A DNA stretch of 64,000 bases. Origin: a virus. The stretch lies in the IMG/VR virus record IMGVR_UViG_3300021961_000053, positions 19,216 to 83,215 of that record; one strand, 5' to 3'. A program made the translations under genes and the position numbers. This document shows, in pieces, positions 6,445-24,059 of this stretch; positions within the stretch are counted from its first letter, which is position 1, and every line of letters starts with the position of its first letter. A model generated the notes under the pieces. The model was not told the DNA's origin. It made no database searches and saw only the letters and a program-made list of their open reading frames with translations.

Positions 6445-6672
6445 ATGAAAGTTCCCACTCAACCTGAGTTGATTCATCTTCAGTTGCAGGCTATGCTGCG
6501 AGATCATAATATTCCAGAGACTGAAGTAAAGTATCTTGGTGATCGTGAATATACTATTGAGTATCAAGCACATCCAGAGTATCATGGTAAAATCATGCCG
6601 TGGTATTTGATTGCAAATGAACATGAAGTGCCCGTGTGCGACATCGCATCAATTGATGCAGTGGACAATTGA
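6445..6672 (+). CDS. Hypothetical protein (75 aa)
   Basis: ORF follows a consensus promoter. Confidence 0.7.
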   Translation: MKVPTQPELIHLQLQAMLRDHNIPETEVKYLGDREYTIEYQAHPEYHGKIMPWYLIANEHEVPVCDIASIDAVDN

Positions 6673-6719
6673 AGAACTGTCACAGGGGGTCTTCGACCCC
6701 CTTTCTCATGCCCTATACT
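6662..6719 (+). promoter_or_regulatory. Palindrome/stem-loop/-10 early promoter unit, copy 1
   Basis: TGGACAA-TTGAAGAA-CTGTCAC (6662-6683), hairpin GGGGGTC-TTC-GACCCCC, TATACT at 6714-6719. Confidence 0.75.
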
Positions 6720-8890: not shown

Positions 8891-9156
8891 AATTCCAGTA
8901 TGGTATGATGGTTGAGTACCGCCACACTCGTGGTTGGGTCAATTTTATTGACGATCAGTACATTACCATCTGTTATGTCGATAGACCAGATCGATCTTCG
9001 CATACTGGTCGTTATCAAGCAAACCTTGTCGTTTTTCGTAATTATTGGCATGAAGTACGCAGTTGTGTGGATGAAACAAAAGAAGAACAAGCAGACGAAA
9101 CAACAAGCTATTTTCTACAATCTAGAGGATGCGATTATGTGGGAGCAGCACATTAA
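8887..9156 (+). CDS. Hypothetical protein (SH3-like N-terminus possible)
   Basis: ATGA coupling; F..G..V.Y....G.V.FI pattern. Confidence 0.6.
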   Translation: MKFQYGMMVEYRHTRGWVNFIDDQYITICYVDRPDRSSHTGRYQANLVVFRNYWHEVRSCVDETKEEQADETTSYFLQSRGCDYVGAAH

Positions 9157-9208
9157 CATGACTGAACACGCAAAGACAGAGTTGCACCCAATCTGGGGTG
9201 ACAGTTGA
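9050..9208 (+). CDS. Hypothetical protein (52 aa, MKYAVVWMKQKK...)
   Basis: Internal ATG of the 8912 ORF gives a plausible compact protein; overlaps the 8887 ORF by 107 nt. Confidence 0.55.
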   Translation: MKYAVVWMKQKKNKQTKQQAIFYNLEDAIMWEQHINMTEHAKTELHPIWGDS

Positions 9209-9254
9209 AGAACTGGTTGGGGCGCTTGACACCGCCCCTTTTTCATGCCATAAT
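9198..9254 (+). promoter_or_regulatory. Palindrome early promoter unit, copy 2, with full -35
   Basis: GTGACAG-TTGAAGAA-CTGGTTG (9198-9219), TTGACA at 9226-9231, 17-nt spacer, TG-extended CATAAT at 9249-9254. Confidence 0.75.
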
Positions 9255-9276
9255 ATCAGTATCAAAACAACACATC

Positions 9277-10931: not shown

Positions 10932-12023
10932 ATGTCTTTTGCAACACCACCAATCATTGAACGAGTTATGTTCTATGACTGGTTAGATGAAAAAAAGTAC
11001 CTAGTCAATCCAATTGAGAGACCGTACAAGGAACGAGCAAAACGAGCTGATGTCATTGACCGATTTAATCCATGGCAGTCTATCCATTATCTTGGTCACG
11101 CTACGGAACTCCAAGTAGATGATGTTGATGAAGTCAGCGGTATAAAATATAAGAAAGGAACCATATTCAAGTTGGATATGCATACCAGACCCCAAGTAAT
11201 CATCAATGGGGATAGTGATGCAACTCCAGAGTTAATTGATAAAAACGGTGGATTTTTAATTTCCAAGGAGAAAGCTTTCAGCATTAAAGACGTAAAAGCA
11301 CAGTACAAGCGGCATGACAGTGCAGAGGCAGTAGAAAAAAGATCTGATGCAATGTATTCTGCTTTCTATTCTGCTTACTATGATACTCTGGTTCCACAAC
11401 CAGATAATCCTGCCTTCATGAAGGCTCAACCGCTTTCATATGCTGCATTCTACACATTTGGATGGGATGAAATAAAGAAAAAAGGATTCAAGTCTGACAG
11501 TGGGTTAGATCAAGAAACACTTTCTTATGCTGTGAAAGCATTTATGTCCTATTACGACAAACTTGATAACATCACTTTTAACACTAAAAAGATGTCATCA
11601 AAGAGTGATGCGGCACATGTGTATGCTTCTATCAGATGGGATAGTTGGTTGTATTTTGCTAGTCTGATGGTTGGTCATCATCATAACTGGTCGCCTGCTT
11701 GGTATCAGACAGTTCTGCAAATCAACAACTGTGATTTAACAGGTTTAGATCTCACTGGAAAAAAAGGATCAACAGCACTTGCTCTCCTTTGTCGTGAATG
11801 GGATCAAACTAATGGAGCACCAGCACACCCAGACAAACGTTTAAATAAAGGACAACTTGGTGGTTCGTTGATAGATCAATTGTTCTTTTTGTTTGATGCT
11901 GCTATCCAAGAACCTAATAAGAGATTCAAGAGTATTTTTACTGAAAGTAATGGATACTTTGATAATGTATACAAATTCAGATTAAATCAATCTAAGAAGA
12001 ATAGTATCTCTTACTTCTTTTAA
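10932..12023 (+). CDS. Hypothetical protein (363 aa), possible ParB/Srx-like N-terminal domain
   Basis: Own promoter and RBS; FKLDMHTR resembles a degenerate hhDGxxR motif; AT-richer than neighbours. Confidence 0.55.
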   Translation: MSFATPPIIERVMFYDWLDEKKYLVNPIERPYKERAKRADVIDRFNPWQSIHYLGHATELQVDDVDEVSGIKYKKGTIFKLDMHTRPQVIINGDSDATPELIDKNGGFLISKEKAFSIKDVKAQYKRHDSAEAVEKRSDAMYSAFYSAYYDTLVPQPDNPAFMKAQPLSYAAFYTFGWDEIKKKGFKSDSGLDQETLSYAVKAFMSYYDKLDNITFNTKKMSSKSDAAHVYASIRWDSWLYFASLMVGHHHNWSPAWYQTVLQINNCDLTGLDLTGKKGSTALALLCREWDQTNGAPAHPDKRLNKGQLGGSLIDQLFFLFDAAIQEPNKRFKSIFTESNGYFDNVYKFRLNQSKKNSISYFF

Positions 12024-12032
12024 ATATTTCAT

Positions 12033-12091
12033 GTGCCACTTTTCAAAGTGTCACAGGGGGTCCTCGTGACCCCTTTTTTATGCCCTATACT
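12033..12091 (+). promoter_or_regulatory. Palindrome/stem-loop/-10 early promoter unit, copy 3
   Basis: GTGCCAC-TTTTCAAA-GTGTCAC, hairpin GGGGTC-CTCGT-GACCCC plus T tract, TATACT at 12086-12091. Confidence 0.8.
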
Positions 12092-12895: not shown

Positions 12896-13072
12896 ATGAA
12901 GACTGCTGAAGTCCCCCTGACCGCCTCTGAACTGAAGTTCCTGATCGATGTGCTGTGGGGTGCTCCCATCGCCACGGTCAAGGATGCAGCATTGCGCCAT
13001 GGTCTCTCTGATTCTGACGTGGAGGGACACTTGGTAAAGTGTCTAGGATACCTCGCCTGTGAGTCCGATTGA
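12896..13072 (+). CDS. Hypothetical protein (58 aa, not in ORF track)
   Basis: Hand translation MKTAEVPLTASELKFLIDVLWG...CESD; its 3' end contains palindrome copy 4. Confidence 0.6.
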   Translation: MKTAEVPLTASELKFLIDVLWGAPIATVKDAALRHGLSDSDVEGHLVKCLGYLACESD

Positions 13073-13081
13073 CCCTATACT
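13024..13081 (+). promoter_or_regulatory. Palindrome early promoter unit, copy 4
   Basis: GGGACAC-TTGGTAAA-GTGTCTA, 30-nt gap, TATACT at 13076-13081. Confidence 0.75.
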
Positions 13082-13715: not shown

Positions 13716-13844
13716 ATGGAAGAAGTTTTGCTTGACCGTTACATCCTGAGCCAACTGGATGCTTATGATCTTGATCTCAGTGAAGATAACTGGGATGAGA
13801 TGCCTAAAGAACAACTATCTGATGAGGTTTTGGAATTGCTGTGA
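13716..13844 (+). CDS. Small acidic hypothetical protein (42 aa)
   Basis: Hand translation MEEVLLDRYILSQLDAYDLDLSEDNWDE... Confidence 0.5.
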   Translation: MEEVLLDRYILSQLDAYDLDLSEDNWDEMPKEQLSDEVLELL

Positions 13845-13909
13845 TTAAACTGCTCGTGGTTGTTGCTGCCATTTATATCCTATGGGAACCAGCACGACCG
13901 ATCCGCCAT

Positions 13910-13967
13910 GTGACAGCTGACATACTGGCACATACTGCCGATCTTGTGCGCCGCTAGACCCTATACT
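13910..13967 (+). promoter_or_regulatory. Palindrome early promoter unit, copy 5
   Basis: GTGACAG-CTGACATA-CTGGCAC, 30-nt gap, TATACT at 13962-13967. Confidence 0.8.
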
Positions 13968-16245: not shown

Positions 16246-16393
16246 TCTCACTCTATTCCCCTTTGTAGATACATTCCCGTATCGTCTAGAGGATAAGAGC
16301 GAGAAGAAAACCTGTTATTTCCAATGTGAATCTCATGCCAGAAAATACATCGACAGATACAAACCAGAATACCAGTTATACTGTTACTCTTGA
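15833..16393 (+). CDS. Basic K/S/T-rich protein with globular C-terminal domain (FPYRLEDK..KKTCYFQCE.HA.KYI.RY)
   Basis: TTG start 7 nt after GGAGG; C-terminal aromatic/Cys domain looks like a real fold; true start uncertain. Confidence 0.55.
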   Translation: MTLKKTKTVRSQSAGTKTTQKKASSTTGQKKTSQTQSRTTSTLSKNLASLTTTESKSSQKASSKSASSSSKTTKTPTKTTSKRPTKSAPTTSTKQQKKSSKTSTLPVNTSKARTKKPTESKQSVKTKVTTDALVYSSDLTLFPFVDTFPYRLEDKSEKKTCYFQCESHARKYIDRYKPEYQLYCYS

Positions 16394-16547
16394 GGAAGAT
16401 GGTGACGAGTGTATTCTACCTCTTCCTGATGAACTCATGGATCAATTAGGATGGTATGATGGGGATGAACTGGAATGGATCGTAAATGACGACAACACCA
16501 TCACGATCCGCAAGGTGCCAGTTGATGAAGTGGCACCCTGCCCCTGA
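16326..16547 (+). CDS. AbrB/MazE/SpoVT-family DNA-binding domain protein
   Basis: ILPLPDELMDQLGWYDGDELEWIVNDDNTITIRK matches the swapped-hairpin pattern. Confidence 0.75.
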   Translation: MNLMPENTSTDTNQNTSYTVTLEEDGDECILPLPDELMDQLGWYDGDELEWIVNDDNTITIRKVPVDEVAPCP

Positions 16548-16572
16548 CTCTGCCACCACTCTGCCCTATAAT
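16515..16572 (+). promoter_or_regulatory. Palindrome early promoter unit, copy 6
   Basis: GTGCCAG-TTGATGAA-GTGGCAC, 30-nt gap, TATAAT at 16567-16572. Confidence 0.8.
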
Positions 16573-16595: not shown

Positions 16596-16973
16596 ATGGC
16601 AACCCGCTCCCGCATCGGTATCGAACTCAAGAACGGTTCTATTCTGTCTGCCTATCACCACTGGGATGGTTACCCCGAGTGGTTGGGTCGCATCCTGAAT
16701 ACTCATTACAATACTCGTGCTAAAGCTGCCGAACTGATTGATGGTGGTGACATGAGTGCTTGCTGGAATGATAACAAGCAAGCAGAATACTATGGCACGG
16801 ATTGCCCCCCGCGTCTTGATGCTGACCTTGCGGAATACCTGCTCCCCGAGAATAGCGAAGAGTTTGCATATGTCTTCCGTAATGATGAGTGGGTGTGCTA
16901 TAATATGCATGAGTTTGATGATAGCAAACTCCCTGAAGTTGTTGAGATCCCCTCTGGAGCATTGATGGCATGA
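16596..16973 (+). CDS. Conserved-type phage protein (MATRSRIG...YHHWDGYP...EEFAYVF)
   Basis: Recognisable widespread phage family pattern; function unknown. Confidence 0.8.
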   Translation: MATRSRIGIELKNGSILSAYHHWDGYPEWLGRILNTHYNTRAKAAELIDGGDMSACWNDNKQAEYYGTDCPPRLDADLAEYLLPENSEEFAYVFRNDEWVCYNMHEFDDSKLPEVVEIPSGALMA

Positions 16974-19173: not shown

Positions 19174-19433
19174 CACTCATCAAATTCATTCATCGTGAAG
19201 ACTTTGGACATGAATATATTGTTCAAATTATCAACACAGGCAAACATATGCCTAAACCATTCAAGAACTACTCATTGATTCAAGTATCATTGTCATGGAA
19301 TGATTTCCCTGGTTGGCCATACATTAAGATCAGTTCTGGTACTGGTAGTCTAATCAATGTTATGGCATGGGTGTATAAACTAGGATTTGATTTCTCTATC
19401 ATAGATCGTACATGGAATTGGCATGAGGAATAA
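19170..19433 (+). CDS. Hypothetical protein (87 aa)
   Basis: ATGA coupling. Confidence 0.65.
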   Translation: MTLIKFIHREDFGHEYIVQIINTGKHMPKPFKNYSLIQVSLSWNDFPGWPYIKISSGTGSLINVMAWVYKLGFDFSIIDRTWNWHEE

Positions 19434-19948: not shown

Positions 19949-20005
19949 GTGCCAGTCCTCAAAGTGTCACAGAAACCCTCAGAGACCCTCAGAATGCCCT
20001 ATAAT
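19949..20005 (+). promoter_or_regulatory. Palindrome early promoter unit, copy 7 (no ORF within 180 nt)
   Basis: GTGCCAG-TCCTCAAA-GTGTCAC, 29-nt gap, TATAAT at 20000-20005. Confidence 0.75.
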
Positions 20006-20472: not shown

Positions 20473-20634
20473 ATGAGCAACAAAAATCATCGCAATGACC
20501 GCTACGATAAGTATAGCGAATTCAATGACGATTTCGAAGACTTTGGTTATGACGTGAAGAACGTTCGCCGTCAAACTAAAAAGAAAGTTACCAAATTCAA
20601 GACCCGTGACGATGAATACTATGACACTTTCTAA
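20473..20634 (+). CDS. Charged hypothetical protein (53 aa)
   Basis: Hand translation MSNKNHRNDRYDKYSEFNDDFEDFGY... Confidence 0.55.
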   Translation: MSNKNHRNDRYDKYSEFNDDFEDFGYDVKNVRRQTKKKVTKFKTRDDEYYDTF

Positions 20635-20678
20635 ACTGGCACACTAACACCCCCATCGATCCCATCATCGTGTATTGT
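20621..20678 (+). promoter_or_regulatory. Palindrome early promoter unit, copy 8
   Basis: ATGACAC-TTTCTAAA-CTGGCAC, 30-nt gap, TATTGT at 20673-20678. Confidence 0.6.
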
Positions 20679-20707
20679 ATACAAGTTGATGGGATTTTTG
20701 ATTGACG

Positions 20708-20878
20708 ATGACACTAACTGAACGCAACCAAAAGTTATATGAACTGCGTGATCAGTTGTTGAAAGCACGAGCACAAGTTGCCTGGATTGAACAACAGATC
20801 TGGTTGACTCGTGATGCATACGATCAAGAACAATTTGCCATCCCTGGTAATAGTCTTTTTGATCAAATGTTCAACTAG
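20708..20878 (+). CDS. Coiled-coil hypothetical protein (56 aa)
   Basis: Hand translation MTLTERNQKLYELRDQLLKARAQVAWIEQQIW... Confidence 0.6.
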   Translation: MTLTERNQKLYELRDQLLKARAQVAWIEQQIWLTRDAYDQEQFAIPGNSLFDQMFN

Positions 20879-20907
20879 ATAATATAACCAACACCCAAGG
20901 AGTTCTC

Positions 20908-21042
20908 ATGACTGTGCAGGAAATGTATCAAGAGATGAAAGAACAAATGCTGGAGGATTCGCTCCTAGGGTATAGAGATCATCACCTCTACGATGATGCT
21001 GAGAGCTATATTGTAGAAATCGACTACACTACACAGAACTAG
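20908..21042 (+). CDS. Hypothetical protein (44 aa)
   Basis: AAGGAG RBS; MTVQEMYQEMKEQMLED... Confidence 0.55.
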   Translation: MTVQEMYQEMKEQMLEDSLLGYRDHHLYDDAESYIVEIDYTTQN

Positions 21043-21108
21043 TGTGACAGTTGGCAAGGTGTCCCCAATTGACCCCAGATGCCCCGACCCTGTGCCTATA
21101 ATGTCTGC

Positions 21109-21306
21109 ATGACAAACAACCTCACCGCTTCCATGGTCCATCAGTTCGATCTCGACATCGCTCCCGCCTTGCGTGAGTACATGGGTTCTAATCTCACTGA
21201 CCTCAGCGACTGCATCGATTGGGTGTGCGCTGTGTTCGATGTGCCCGCTAGCGAGTGGATCTGCGATCGTATCGCTGACGAGTTCGAAGAGTTCTTCGGG
21301 GTGTGA
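21109..21306 (+). CDS. Acidic hypothetical early protein, probably leaderless
   Basis: ATG lies 6 nt after TATAAT. Confidence 0.7.
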   Translation: MTNNLTASMVHQFDLDIAPALREYMGSNLTDLSDCIDWVCAVFDVPASEWICDRIADEFEEFFGV

Positions 21307-21389
21307 CAGTTGGGGGAGTGTCCATCATTCTCCCCATTGCCCCCCATCTGCTGCCATACTAACCTCAGTTCAAACAACCAACGCCAAAC

Positions 21390-21749
21390 ATGCGTAAGAT
21401 CGAACGCCAAATGCTCAACGCCATTGCTGTTAACAGCAACTGGAAATGTGCTAACACTGAAGTGTGCTACGATCCCGAAACTAACGAGAGCACTGTGTAT
21501 CTGCACGGTAACAAGATTGCAGAGGTAGGTGATAACTACCTGCGCCTCTTTGATGGTGGTTGGCAATCTAACACCACCAAATCTCGCATCAATGCTATCA
21601 TGCAAGAATGCAGCATTGCAGGCGAAGGTGTATTCCAGAAGAACTATCAGTGGTTCATTCGCCTCTTCAATGGCACTGAATTCTTCGTCACTGAGTTTCG
21701 CTCTGGCATGAAACTTGGTGCTCTGCCTTACTCTCTGCTGCTCGCCTGA
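21390..21749 (+). CDS. Conserved-type phage protein (MRKIERQM...LHGNKIA...GGWQSNTTKSRINA)
   Basis: Recognisable phage family pattern; follows promoter copy 10. Confidence 0.8.
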   Translation: MRKIERQMLNAIAVNSNWKCANTEVCYDPETNESTVYLHGNKIAEVGDNYLRLFDGGWQSNTTKSRINAIMQECSIAGEGVFQKNYQWFIRLFNGTEFFVTEFRSGMKLGALPYSLLLA

Positions 21750-21759
21750 GTTACAGAAT

Positions 21760-21778
21760 AGGGGAGACAATCTCCCCT
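21760..21778 (+). terminator. Stem-loop, probable terminator
   Basis: AGGGGAGA-CAA-TCTCCCCT just after the 21749 stop. Confidence 0.5.
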
Positions 21779-21972
21779 TCTCAATAGACTTTCTAATTGA
21801 GAATCGCGGCTGCCCCTAGTACAACTGAACTCATGGCATCATCAGCATCCCCCATCCTAGGCGTCTGGTATGATCCGACCGCCAAGCGCAGTACAGTTGA
21901 GAATGTGGCACAGTGGGTTGCCGTTGCTGCTGCCCTGGGATCTATACTGATCTCAGTTCAAACGAAACGCAA

Positions 21973-22188
21973 GTGACCCACGCCATCGCAGTTCAACCGA
22001 CCGCCTGGACTTCCTTCGATCAGCATGGTTGCGAGTGGGCAACCGACATGCGCCATGCCTACCGCATCGCCCAACAATGGGGCGAGCCCTGCATGGTCTG
22101 GATGTGCCCCGTGCATGGTGCCCCGATGAAGTGGTGTCGTGCCACTGAGATCACAGACGCCATCGCTGACCTAGTGTTCGGTGCCTGA
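21973..22188 (+). CDS. Hypothetical early protein (GTG start)
   Basis: Start placed downstream of TATACT at 21943. Confidence 0.65.
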   Translation: MTHAIAVQPTAWTSFDQHGCEWATDMRHAYRIAQQWGEPCMVWMCPVHGAPMKWCRATEITDAIADLVFGA

Positions 22189-22238
22189 AGTGGCACAAGG
22201 GGGACTGAGATCCCCTGCCCACCCTCTATACTAACAGC

Positions 22239-22448
22239 ATGAACAGCACCGAACTCAAGACCCTGAACTTCACCCTCTCCCTGCAGGATCGCTGCATCGC
22301 CATCGCTGAGGCGCTCGCCATGGAAATCAACGGTGACCTCTCCTACGTGCCAGAGGAGGATGCCGAGCGTATCATGGCACGTCTGACCCCAGACAACATA
22401 CAGGAGACGGCAGAGGAACTGGCACAACTTGCCTACTGGTTCAACTGA
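22239..22448 (+). CDS. Hypothetical early protein, probably leaderless
   Basis: ATG lies 6 nt after TATACT. Confidence 0.7.
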   Translation: MNSTELKTLNFTLSLQDRCIAIAEALAMEINGDLSYVPEEDAERIMARLTPDNIQETAEELAQLAYWFN

Positions 22449-22483
22449 TCACCCCTTAGACTGATTCCATCGAAACGAACCCC

Positions 22484-22651
22484 ATGATCTACGTTGTGAC
22501 CGCTGGCGACTTCTACGAATCCGATGATGTCTGCTGCCTGTTCGCCCATGAGGCAGACGCCCATGCCTATGCTGCCCAACTCGAAGGCGAATACGATTGG
22601 GCAGAGGTCACTCCCCAAACCGTCCACCAAGGTCCGCTGGTCGCCGCCTGA
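22484..22651 (+). CDS. Hypothetical early protein (55 aa, not in ORF track)
   Basis: Hand translation MIYVVTAGDFYESDDVCCLFAHEADAHAYAAQL... Confidence 0.65.
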   Translation: MIYVVTAGDFYESDDVCCLFAHEADAHAYAAQLEGEYDWAEVTPQTVHQGPLVAA

Positions 22652-22668
22652 CCCCTTATACTAAGAGC

Positions 22669-22839
22669 ATGAACAAACAACCCGACCTCGCCGCCATCAT
22701 GGCATCCTACACTGCACAGTACAACCAGATGCAGGCACGATCCGCTGCCAACCGTCAGGCATTCGCTGAGGGTCGCCCCTTCCCCTTCCCTGCCCCTGAG
22801 TGCCAGTCGGGCAACTGGAACATCAGCGACCGCGACTGA
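22669..22839 (+). CDS. Hypothetical early protein (56 aa), probably leaderless
   Basis: ATG lies 6 nt after TATACT. Confidence 0.65.
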   Translation: MNKQPDLAAIMASYTAQYNQMQARSAANRQAFAEGRPFPFPAPECQSGNWNISDRD

Positions 22840-22885
22840 TCGCCTGACCCTCTAGAATTCTCTCATACCAAACAACCCAAACGAC

Positions 22886-23158
22886 ATGACCGCTTCCACC
22901 CTCCCCACGTACAACGGTTGGGCAACCTACGAGACCTGGAATGCTGCCCTCTGGATTGGCAACGATCAATTCCTCTACAACACCGCTAAGGCGTGTGTCG
23001 AGTTCTGCTCTGATGACGAGACCCCCTGGGATAAGTTCGTCCGCTGCATGACTGACGGGCAGATCGGTCGCCATCTTGTGCAGACCCGTGATGGGGTGCG
23101 CTGGGATAGCGTCGCCATCGATGCAGACGAGATGAACGCCATGATGGTCGATCTCTGA
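22886..23158 (+). CDS. Conserved-type phage protein (YNGWATYETWNAALWIGND)
   Basis: YNGW.NYETW...LW..ND family pattern. Confidence 0.8.
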   Translation: MTASTLPTYNGWATYETWNAALWIGNDQFLYNTAKACVEFCSDDETPWDKFVRCMTDGQIGRHLVQTRDGVRWDSVAIDADEMNAMMVDL

Positions 23159-23231
23159 ACCGCACACTACGGGGGTCTCTGCTGCCCCCCTTGCCTATAG
23201 ACTAACCACAGTTCAACCGACAGACAGACCG

Positions 23232-23417
23232 ATGATCATGAGCATGGCAACCGACCTCCAGACCCGCCGCATCGTGTGGGCAGGTCGCAAGACAGAGACC
23301 GCTCATCAGACCATGGGGCAAGATCTCCCCATCACCGTAGAGAGCGAGTGGATCGCGGGTGCCTACGCTGACCGCTGGCATGATGAGGCAATCGCCAAGA
23401 TCCCCACGTTCGGGTGA
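23232..23417 (+). CDS. Hypothetical early protein (61 aa)
   Basis: Follows promoter copy 16. Confidence 0.65.
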   Translation: MIMSMATDLQTRRIVWAGRKTETAHQTMGQDLPITVESEWIAGAYADRWHDEAIAKIPTFG

Positions 23418-23456
23418 GGGGTCGCCCCCCATCCTACCACACACCCATTCTCTACT

Positions 23457-23657
23457 ATGAACATCAGAAAGTATCAGCGATCAGTGGATGAAATCATGAA
23501 CCGCTACGGTTTCATCTTTGAGAGCAAGTCTAAGCACATGAAATACAAGCACACGAAACTAGGCATCATTCAGGTATGCTCTGCGACGCCATCTGATAAC
23601 TATGCTCTCTCGCAGATTGAGCGCCAATGTAGACGCTCACTCGCAGCAGCACAGTGA
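23457..23657 (+). CDS. HicA-like (dsRBD-fold) toxin/RNase-like protein
   Basis: Helix-GF-strand-SKH-strand-KH...TPSD-helix arrangement; basic; 66 aa. Confidence 0.55.
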   Translation: MNIRKYQRSVDEIMNRYGFIFESKSKHMKYKHTKLGIIQVCSATPSDNYALSQIERQCRRSLAAAQ

Positions 23658-23662
23658 TACTG

Positions 23663-23690
23663 GGGGGCAGTTAATTTGCCCCCCTTTGTT
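23663..23690 (+). terminator. Stem-loop terminator ending the early region
   Basis: GGGGGCA-GTTAATT-TGCCCCC followed by T-rich TTTGTT. Confidence 0.55.
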
Positions 23691-23755
23691 ATACTTAGGG
23701 GCGCCAAGCGAAATGTTTGGGTCCCTCCTAACCTACAAAAGTATCCAGACGACCG

Positions 23756-23762
23756 ATAAATA
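23756..23762 (+). promoter_or_regulatory. T4-type late promoter (ATAAATA)
   Basis: At the start of the late structural block. Confidence 0.6.
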
Positions 23763-23807
23763 TTTCTGAAAACCTTGAAAATAAAAAAATTTGCCCAGAA
23801 AAAAATT

Positions 23808-24059
23808 ATGGAAAAACCCGCGTTTGAAAACTTCACAGGTATTCTAGAGAACTTTGATGCATTCTGCGACGAGTTTGAATCACGCGCCGCAGAGGCATTC
23901 ATGAGAGGAGATCAAAATAATGGAAACATCGTCAGAGCAGCCACAGAAAAACTTGGAGGAGAAACTCCTACTGTTGTTACAGAGATTAGAGAGTCTGGAG
24001 CTGAGGGTGTCTCAGTTGGAGAGACCGACGATTGCGTACAGACGCCCACAGGGGAATAA
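23808..24059 (+). CDS. Hypothetical protein (LENFDAFCDEFESRAAEAF)
   Basis: ATG at 23808; 3' half overlaps the next ORF by 140 nt. Confidence 0.55.
   Translation: MEKPAFENFTGILENFDAFCDEFESRAAEAFMRGDQNNGNIVRAATEKLGGETPTVVTEIRESGAEGVSVGETDDCVQTPTGE

Follow-up and report, generated by a model that had tools for sequence, protein, structure and literature searches.

According to a 2016 study by Doron and colleagues, the early genes of T4-like cyanophages are reportedly preceded by a conserved, abundant element. Here we describe a two-armed palindromic site (dyad) that recurs with a −10 box among small genes in a 64,000-nucleotide (nt) stretch of viral DNA (the window; positions 19,216 to 83,215 of IMG/VR virus record IMGVR_UViG_3300021961_000053). 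We take this cassette to be most likely the element of that study. Integron attC arrays offer a second parallel: their small genes each finish, at the 3′ end, in an imperfect palindrome and have variable neighbours. The window shares both of these features but differs in that the sequence of the palindrome is conserved, rather than its structure, and in that each unit has its own promoter.

PeSL (promoter-early stem-loop) cassettes of T4-type phages are repeated early-promoter units between the small open reading frames (ORFs) of hyperplastic regions, and recombination between flanking units reportedly yields mini-circles. The stop codon of the upstream gene is part of the unit, and the units are tied to insertions, deletions and replacements between relatives (available text of Arbiol 2010, PMC2839356, and Comeau 2014, PMC4122927). 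The cassettes of the window resemble them in these points, lying at gene replacement boundaries between related phages, and the G-run/C-run hairpins that accompany some units occur in 4/15 cases here. As described in the same text, the PeSL promoter is sigma-70-like, its −35 and −10 boxes being close to consensus and about 17 nt apart; upstream of it the DNA is AT-rich, and a stem-loop is always present. Unlike these, the cassettes described here appear to lack a conserved −35 box, have a GC-containing dyad upstream, mostly seem to have no hairpin, and have an upstream half that is often coding. Only the units with spacers at 6682, 9218, 12053 and 20641 appear to be of the PeSL type, with a terminator plus a promoter. 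In phage S-PM2, the PeSL density was judged low in the available text of Puxty 2015 (PMC4503421).

The half-site of the dyad is also found in a host regulatory element. PMM1637, a GntR-type protein of the PlmA subfamily, binds the palindromic element CGRE1 in the yfr2 promoters of Prochlorococcus and marine Synechococcus, on the evidence of a pull-down, an electrophoretic mobility shift assay and a point mutant (Lambrecht 2018, PMC6191309, available text). The phage dyad and CGRE1 share the same 9–10-nt half-site, GTGACAGTT plus G or A, with the promoter-proximal half-site at about equal distance from the −10 box, and both belong to promoters of the −10-only type. CGRE1 differs in its inverted arm order (CAACTGTCAC, a centre of 1–2 nt, then GTGACAGTTG) and in driving small RNA (sRNA) genes. 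With its opposite order and 4-nt centre (N4), the phage dyad does not fit the CGRE1 layout, a 21–22-nt palindrome with a centre of 1–2 nt.

The bases of the phage sites serve twice: the dual coding of a protein tail and a promoter site in the same DNA is real. In T4-like cyanophages, we consider it probable that the palindromes form the upstream half of the early-gene promoter cassette, where a protein docks; the cassette would be read by the host protein PlmA and exchanged by recombination. A preliminary description of the window had presented them as operators written into the ends of the preceding genes. The overlap is mostly forced by packing, and the sites probably belong to promoters with a cassette of known type; we do not take them for new operators or for recombination sites. 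The dual-coding and C-terminus analysis of the cassette is our own. Sullivan 2010 accepted promoters only if they lay between genes or at most 10 bp from where an ORF ends, and annotation pipelines that limit promoters to intergenic DNA will miss this class.

Structure and enrichment of the composite site

The 11 ORF ends named in the preliminary description yielded a two-armed site, GMCANTT-N4-AANTGKC, preceded by TGT and followed by ACA; position counts over 169 unique sites from the window and its relatives gave TGTGMCASTT-N4-AASTGKCACA. In the composite site, a dyad of 18–24 nt lies 38–41 nt ahead of a −10 box. Fifteen composite sites, relaxed ones included, are located on the + strand between 6.6 and 22.9 kb of the window (Table 1), with −10 boxes at 15/15. 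A consensus scan found a TTGACA-like hexamer at the right spacing for a few sites only, for example at 9226–9254 and 16544–16572. Consensus sites for sigma-54, NtcA, CRP/FNR and LexA did not fit in a comparison by eye.

A strict composite was defined as an 18-mer matching at least 10/12 positions with TAnnnT 38–41 nt after N4. On the + strand of the window it occurs 11 times, compared with a mean of 0.95 (s.d. 1.09, maximum 5) in 200 block shuffles. The right arm combined with the −10 pattern gives 6 matches against 1.24 expected, a number reached in 0/100 shuffles, and a 20-mer with at most one mismatch has 14 matches in the 83-kb record and 0 for the reversed control. The motif becomes significant once its −10 partner box is included. 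The association between dyad and −10 box is directional: TAnnnT follows N4 by 38–41 nt at 113/133 unique + strand sites of the window and related loci, compared with 29/133 when the sites are read from the opposite strand. The motif is enriched in 5/5 complete relatives (3–18 matches, 0–1 for the control) and lies at equivalent places in S-RIM32, S-H9-1, S-RSM4 and S-PM2.

Palindromes at the 3′ ends of ORFs could also function as hairpins, in RNA or in single-strand DNA, that terminate the upstream message, mark it for processing or stabilise its 3′ end, and the arms could form a stem of 7–9 bp with a 4-nt loop. Across the 169 sites, complementarity at the variable paired positions is close to expectation (78 versus 77.3 expected at positions 2/17; 76 versus 75.5 at 5/14), and this lack of covariation between the arms points to a double-stranded DNA site that is read arm by arm rather than to a hairpin. 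The distance to the downstream −10 box is fixed, on one strand only, and the host dyad lies upstream of sRNA genes and not within them, so that a function as a hairpin appears very unlikely. Stable hairpins of a separate kind, G/C-rich and with T runs, are present in 4 of 11 folded spacers (6682, 9218, 12053 and 20641); the hairpin in the spacer of the 6664 site has a folding energy of −14.6 kcal/mol (z −2.99), and that at 20641 one of −19.8 kcal/mol, with 0/200 shuffles folding as well. None of the coding spacers among the 11 folded has such a hairpin. Two hairpins are no better than shuffles, and the same holds for the G5/C6 hairpin of 23159–23203.

Overlap with upstream reading frames

A supported upstream ORF overlaps the dyad at 10/15 composite sites. 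The whole 18-mer is coding at five sites (13026, 16517, 22406, 22607 and 22802), and the stop codon falls inside N4 or the right arm at ORF ends 6672, 9208 and 20634. ORF 8975–9208 lacks homologue support, with one weak match only. No homologue of ORF 21833–21976, the sole ORF over the 21892 site, was found in 159 related loci, and this ORF is not included in the count of overlaps. In the family of ORF 21973–22188, the right arm is located directly past the stop in 6/10 unique homologous loci. Among 108 unique composites, which are related and not independent, the upstream ORF ends inside the dyad in 21 and between dyad and −10 box in 50 (together 71/108), before the dyad in 7, within the −10 box in 3 and after it in 16, with no upstream ORF of at least 40 codons in the remaining 11. 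Of the 11 ORF ends that had been placed at palindromes, 10 overlap or adjoin a site; at 23158, the expected register contains no dyad.

Reading frames were derived from the coordinates of sites and ORFs. With dyad base 1 at codon position 1, as at five sites, the ORF stops inside the site at 4/5, and 22607 has no stop triplet in N4. With base 1 at codon position 2, the ORF at 21305 stops on TGA-C and those at 13026 and 22802 read through; with base 1 at codon position 3, the frames at 16517, 22406 and 21892 read through. Two of the three frames can thus obtain a stop codon from the dyad, and the third stays open. The C-termini VPVDEVAP, ETAEELAQ, ECQSGNWN and GHLVKCL had been described as translations of one motif in different frames. 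The motif does encode all four, although only two frames are used and not four: the first two share one frame, the last two share the other, and the remaining frame is the one that mostly stops inside the site.

Stop-to-start spacers measure 17–93 nt and the dyad starts 62–87 nt ahead of the start codon; therefore the dyad usually lies in the last 1–15 codons of the preceding gene, and the two can hardly fail to overlap. The cassette is simply intergenic when the ORF before it ends early (12035, 13912 and 19951). The overlap could on this basis be a by-product of packing with no part in gene exchange or protein shaping. Such a reading also accommodates the 21109 family, in which the stop lies within the dyad at 9/11 loci, whereas at the other 2/11 the ORF ends at TAA, approximately 75 nt ahead of the dyad. 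Proteins of this family have the same length with or without the adjoining dyad. A mere by-product nevertheless seems unlikely to us, since codon choice and residue alternations follow the motif, one ORF has gained eight codons from reading into a cassette, and breakpoints between relatives coincide with cassette edges.

Selection on the shared bases

The overlapping ORFs behave as genuine coding sequences, with ratios of non-synonymous to synonymous substitution (dN/dS) of 0.18–0.40 in four ORF families, indicating purifying selection. Tail codons past the dyad change synonymously while their residues are kept: a tail Leu is encoded by three codons in the 12896 family, the residue being kept in 14/14 sequences, and by four codons in the 22239 family, where it is kept in 8/8. 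The tails are therefore translated and selected.

The preliminary description had set reduced synonymous variation at the motif as a check beforehand, and such a reduction was found. Synonymous diversity is 0.121 in arm codons and 0.239 elsewhere (Mann–Whitney p = 0.015, indicative), and is zero at 11/16 arm codons compared with 50/142 other codons (Fisher p = 0.010, indicative). In the 12896 family, the dyad is kept in 13/13 homologues and the sole variable dyad base is in N4.

Two further families show how the site bears on codons and residues. Proteins of the 6445 family have a conserved end, ...V-D-(D/N). When homologues were sorted by the right arm alone, which avoids a circular grouping by the tested bases, the Asp was encoded as GAC in 30/30 sequences with the dyad and 17/29 without it (p = 4.6e-5), and the Val as GTG in 26/30 and 13/29, respectively (p = 9e-4). 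Of 76 usable homologues, 38 are without the dyad and still retain the V-D end. The protein ends of the 20473 family, D-(T/S)-(F/Y)-stop, fall inside the dyad at 31/31 unique homologous loci, with Thr alternating with Ser, and Phe with Tyr, at degenerate dyad positions.

In ORF 13716–13844, the embedded dyad (13802–13819) has decayed, with arms matching 3/6 and 5/6 and no −10 box behind it, and the protein tail PKEQLSDEVLELL resembles the tail MPVEELSHEVLELLS of homologues with an intact dyad. Synonymous change in the tails, the retained tail of this ORF and the V-D end kept without the dyad together show that the C-termini are not mere by-products of the motif. A fresh cassette is located about 70 nt further on, at 13912, and from its sequence the 13802–13930 arrangement looks like a promoter displaced by an insertion.

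Gene exchange at the cassettes

Comparison of downstream neighbours among relatives, which the preliminary description had called for, shows that the site can remain with one gene while the next is replaced. In the 22239 family, 12/12 homologues have kept four features (right arm, stop codon, −10 box and the tail ETAEELAQLA(Y/A)WFN), and the downstream gene comes from 5 families across 13 loci. The end ...ISDR(D/H) of the 22669 family is kept in 24/24, with 7 downstream families across 25 loci, and the 13716 family has 3 across 9 loci. In the 22239 and 22669 families, the site stays with the upstream gene and the downstream gene varies, which supports the suggestion that a gene brings along the element controlling its successor, whichever that may be.

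The other suggestion, that genes read into the repeat, is borne out in one case. The PF04014 domain (AbrB/MazE-type) of ORF 16335–16547 ends at residue 62. Its homologues (n = 14) stop 2–5 residues past ...TITI(K/R)K, more distant ones ending differently; the dyad and the PVDEVAPCP tail are present in 0/14, and the DNA downstream of these homologues is unrelated. The dyad, spacer, −10 box and leader of the 16517 site are found again before homologues of 16596–16973 in two related loci, behind unrelated DNA, which places a left-edge breakpoint between relatives at 16517. Judged from these alignments, ORF 16335–16547 reads eight extra codons into the cassette of its downstream neighbour.

Palindromes at small-gene 3′ ends, variable neighbours and one rewritten C-terminus would also be expected of an integron-like array in which the palindromes are site-specific recombination sites, and the preliminary description had drawn an analogy of this type. 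The analogy does not hold up. The arms do not covary, it is sequence rather than structure that is conserved, every unit has its own −10 box, and breakpoints are spread across the cassette with no single fixed point. A tyrosine recombinase domain (PF00589) was found in 0/5 records searched (the virus's own 43% complete record and 4 complete relatives), whereas the control was found in 14/14 genomes. An integron-like array is therefore extremely improbable.

Candidate binding protein

An exact scan for the dyad in all genomes (596 Gb) returned at least 125 loci, with many intergenic copies, a number within our own chance estimate, and only the contexts of the matches were used. In five cyanobacterial genomes, the dyad occurs 1–3 times per genome and the control 0 times. 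Among the matches listed, four loci have the dyad about 63 nt before a Cyano-1 RNA gene (RF01701, Yfr2 family), with a −10-like box 39–41 nt after N4. Cyano-1/Yfr2 RNA is carried by 134/151 sampled cyanobacterial genomes. An 18-mer matching at least 10/12 positions is present in 24/67 unique Yfr2 promoters, 22 of them at one fixed position, against a background of 14 in 144,138 positions.

The phage position-frequency matrix, built from the 169 sites, matches the half-sites of three yfr2 promoters. In two of these promoters (L309 and L340), which contain CGRE1, the phage half-sites are in opposite order, and in the third (L333) there are three arms in a row. The phage-type arm order is itself found in small genomes of picocyanobacterial size (six examples). 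A phage-type dyad is also fixed before Yfr2/Cyano-1 genes in many genomes other than those of marine picocyanobacteria (12 listed, and others), and judging from these occurrences the half-site seems to have a much wider distribution than the element as published.

Searches of the phage record and 4 complete relatives found a GntR domain in none of the five. This absence, together with the half-site match in Yfr2 promoters, makes host PlmA (PMM1637 family) the best candidate, and a likely one, for the protein that reads the phage dyad. The fixed upstream position and the weak −35 box would fit an activator site better than a repressor operator. No autoregulated GntR gene was found beside the dyad in 7 cyanobacterial loci inspected.

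The dyad might instead be read by a phage-encoded or other protein, such as an early-gene repressor, with the likeness to Yfr2 promoters reflecting common descent, or mimicry that does not involve PlmA. In its arm order the dyad departs from the CGRE1 form bound by PMM1637, and, among the matches listed, dyads in other phyla lie beside GntR-type ORFs. Both the mechanism of early transcription and early-gene shut-off in cyanomyoviruses are called unclear in the available text of a review (Clokie 2010, PMC2984593). We think a different reader improbable, given that the phage records searched have no GntR domain and that many cyanobacteria, including those with genomes of picocyanobacterial size, have the phage-type order at the same distance before Yfr2 genes. 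A literature search on CGRE1, and on PlmA together with cyanophages, returned nothing on phage promoters in the text it covered.

Proposed mechanism

The geometry, the overlaps, the signatures of selection and the exchange of neighbours are seen in the sequences; the transcription starts, the binding protein, its activating role and the mode of recombination are deduced. In the mechanism that we propose, the cassette would begin with the two-armed site, centred approximately 53–54 nt ahead of the presumed start of transcription. A 32-nt spacer would lead from it to the −10 box, a −35 box not being consistently present, and host PlmA, a GntR-type protein, would act as an activator on the arms. 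The tight packing of small early genes would place the site in the end of the preceding gene and so give rise to dual coding. The site would then dictate codon choice and some C-terminal residues, and a gene joined in the open third frame would read on into the cassette. Related phages would swap genes at the cassettes through homologous recombination of the PeSL type: a breakpoint near the −10 box or leader would leave the site with the upstream gene, and one at the left dyad edge would leave the cassette with the downstream gene. A bolder version, which we hold to be possible but rather doubtful, is a true gene chain, in which the last codons of one gene form the docking site of the nitrogen- and energy-linked host protein PlmA, the promoter grammar writes C-termini (Thr/Ser and Phe/Tyr alternations, stops provided by the site and an eight-codon extension), and recombination at the shared core exchanges downstream genes, the activator site travelling with the upstream gene.

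Several points weigh against this mechanism. The bare 18-mer with up to two mismatches is not enriched (15 matches versus 11.85 expected; 22/100 shuffles reach 15), and the composite and stricter patterns replaced it for that reason. Within the GC-rich stretch, sites 22177, 22406 and 22607 are weak or right-arm-only. Since a convincing hairpin is present in only 4/15 spacers, most sites are not full terminator-promoter units of the PeSL type. The overlap, being largely forced by geometry, does not by itself show selection for chaining. Related sequences are pooled in the tests of synonymous sites, so that the p values, which ignore shared ancestry, are indicative only; the −10 boxes are the basis for all positions given relative to +1. 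Finally, CGRE1, the sole form shown to bind PMM1637, has the opposite arm order, with arm ends inward and a centre of 1–2 nt.

In ocean viruses of a highly abundant group, the cassettes show a regulatory site and a protein tail written in the same bases. The cost of the shared bases is seen in fixed codons, restricted residues, borrowed stops and an occasional new tail. The cassette also provides a concrete unit for gene shuffling in the hyperplastic regions of cyanophages and, with the match to Yfr2 promoters, whether PlmA switches on the first genes of the phage becomes a testable question.

Genomic setting and associated elements

The window belongs to a T4-like cyanomyovirus, a virus of marine cyanobacteria, as identified from sequence matches of a 3-kb stretch; the virus's own record is an 83-kb fragment that is 43% complete. 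The 3-kb stretch matches T4-like cyanomyoviruses only (S-H9-1, S-B43, S-RIM32, S-RSM4, S-WAM2 and S-PM2), in patches of approximately 70–82% identity, with no record covering 80% of the query, and nearly all annotated counterparts of its genes are named 'hypothetical protein'. Pfam families were assigned to 3/16 small proteins tested: 16335–16547 (PF04014, MazE/AbrB-type), 21390–21749 (PF23790, Kyano_Gp96) and 22886–23158 (PF23907, DUF7249). The remaining 13/16 have no Pfam family at E values up to 0.01, and an Rfam scan of the window at gathering thresholds gave no match. A G+C island (51–58% at 21000–24000, compared with approximately 35% for most of the window) is where tiny genes follow one another most densely and where dyads are most degenerate.

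Table 1. Composite promoter sites and related features of the window. Each of the 15 composites begins at the first base of its 18-mer; dyad matches are given out of 12 positions, or out of 6 for single arms.
Feature	Position	Strand	Dyad	−10 box	Relation to ORFs and other elements
Composite promoter	6664–6719	+	6664–6681, 12/12	TATACT, 6714–6719	G/C hairpin in spacer; TGA 6670–6672 (stop of ORF 6445–6672) is dyad positions 7–9
Composite promoter	9200–9256	+	9200–9217, 11/12	near 9249–9256	Terminator-like hairpin 9219–9238 plus T run, TTGACA in hairpin loop; stop TGA of ORF 8975–9208 is dyad positions 7–9
Composite promoter, fully intergenic	12035–12091	+	12035–12052, 12/12	12086–12091	Terminator-like hairpin 12055–12075; upstream ORF ends at 12023
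Dyad inside ORF 12896–13072	13026–13081	+	13026–13043, 12/12	13076–13081	Encodes GHLVKC; stop 13070–13072
Composite promoter, intergenic	13912–13967	+	10/12		No supported ORF overlapping
Dyad in last 8 codons of ORF 16335–16547	16517–16572	+	16517–16534, 12/12	TATAAT, 16567–16572	Tail PVDEVAPCP; then gene 16596–16973
Composite promoter, intergenic	19951–20005	+	11/12		
Composite promoter	20623–20700	+	20623–20640, 12/12	TATTGT, 20673–20678, inside terminator hairpin (arms 20659–20695), then T run	Left arm encodes D-T-F, last residues of ORF 20473–20634; its stop TAA is dyad positions 10–12
Composite promoter	21046–21102	+	21046–21063, 11/12	21097–21102	4 nt past stop of ORF 20908–21042, which the TGT flank adjoins; 6 nt to ATG 21109
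Composite promoter	21305–21360	+	21305–21322, 11/12	CATACT, 21355–21360	Stop TGA 21304–21306 of ORF 21109–21306 is dyad positions 0–2; then gene 21390–21749 (Kyano_Gp96)
Composite promoter of gene 21973–22188 (GTG start)	21892–21948	+	10/12		
Right-arm-only site	22177–22232	+	Right arm 22188–22194, 6/6; left arm 2/6	22227–22232	Stop TGA 22186–22188 of ORF 21973–22188 inside site; 6 nt to ATG 22239
Site inside ORF 22239–22448	22406–22462	+	Right arm 6/6; left arm 3/6	TAGACT, 22457–22462	Encodes ETAEELAQ; stop 22446–22448
Weak site inside ORF 22484–22651	22607–22662	+	9/12	22657–22662	6 nt to ATG 22669
Dyad inside ORF 22669–22839	22802–22858	+	22802–22819, 10/12	TAGAAT, 22853–22858	Encodes CQSGNW; stop 22837–22839; then gene 22886–23158 (DUF7249)
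Spacer after ORF 22886–23158	23159–23203	+	None at expected register	−10-like TATAGA/TAGACT	G5/C6 hairpin

At genes 21109, 22239 and 22669, the ATG follows the −10 box after a gap of only 6 nt (21097–21111, 22227–22241 and 22657–22671), and the identical arrangement of −10 box, 6-nt gap and ATG is found again in relatives. Transcripts of these three genes would be leaderless or nearly so. A leader starting ...tcAGTTCAAAC, a few bases past the −10 box, is common to the cassettes at 21361–21375, 21949–21963 and 23204–23218 and is frequent in relatives.

Among the matches listed from the scan of all genomes, a 22-nt dyad lies just upstream of ORFs with a GntR-type N-terminus in Bryobacterales only (three loci), and tandem copies of the dyad occur in Sphingomonadales (seven loci). 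In AT-rich relatives, the homologue of gene 16596–16973 has a different conserved element ahead of it, composed of the right-arm-like sequence AAAGTGTCC followed within a few bases by TATAGTGTAAG. This element is located approximately 40 nt before the start of the match in 16 related loci, and it may represent a second promoter class built from one arm.

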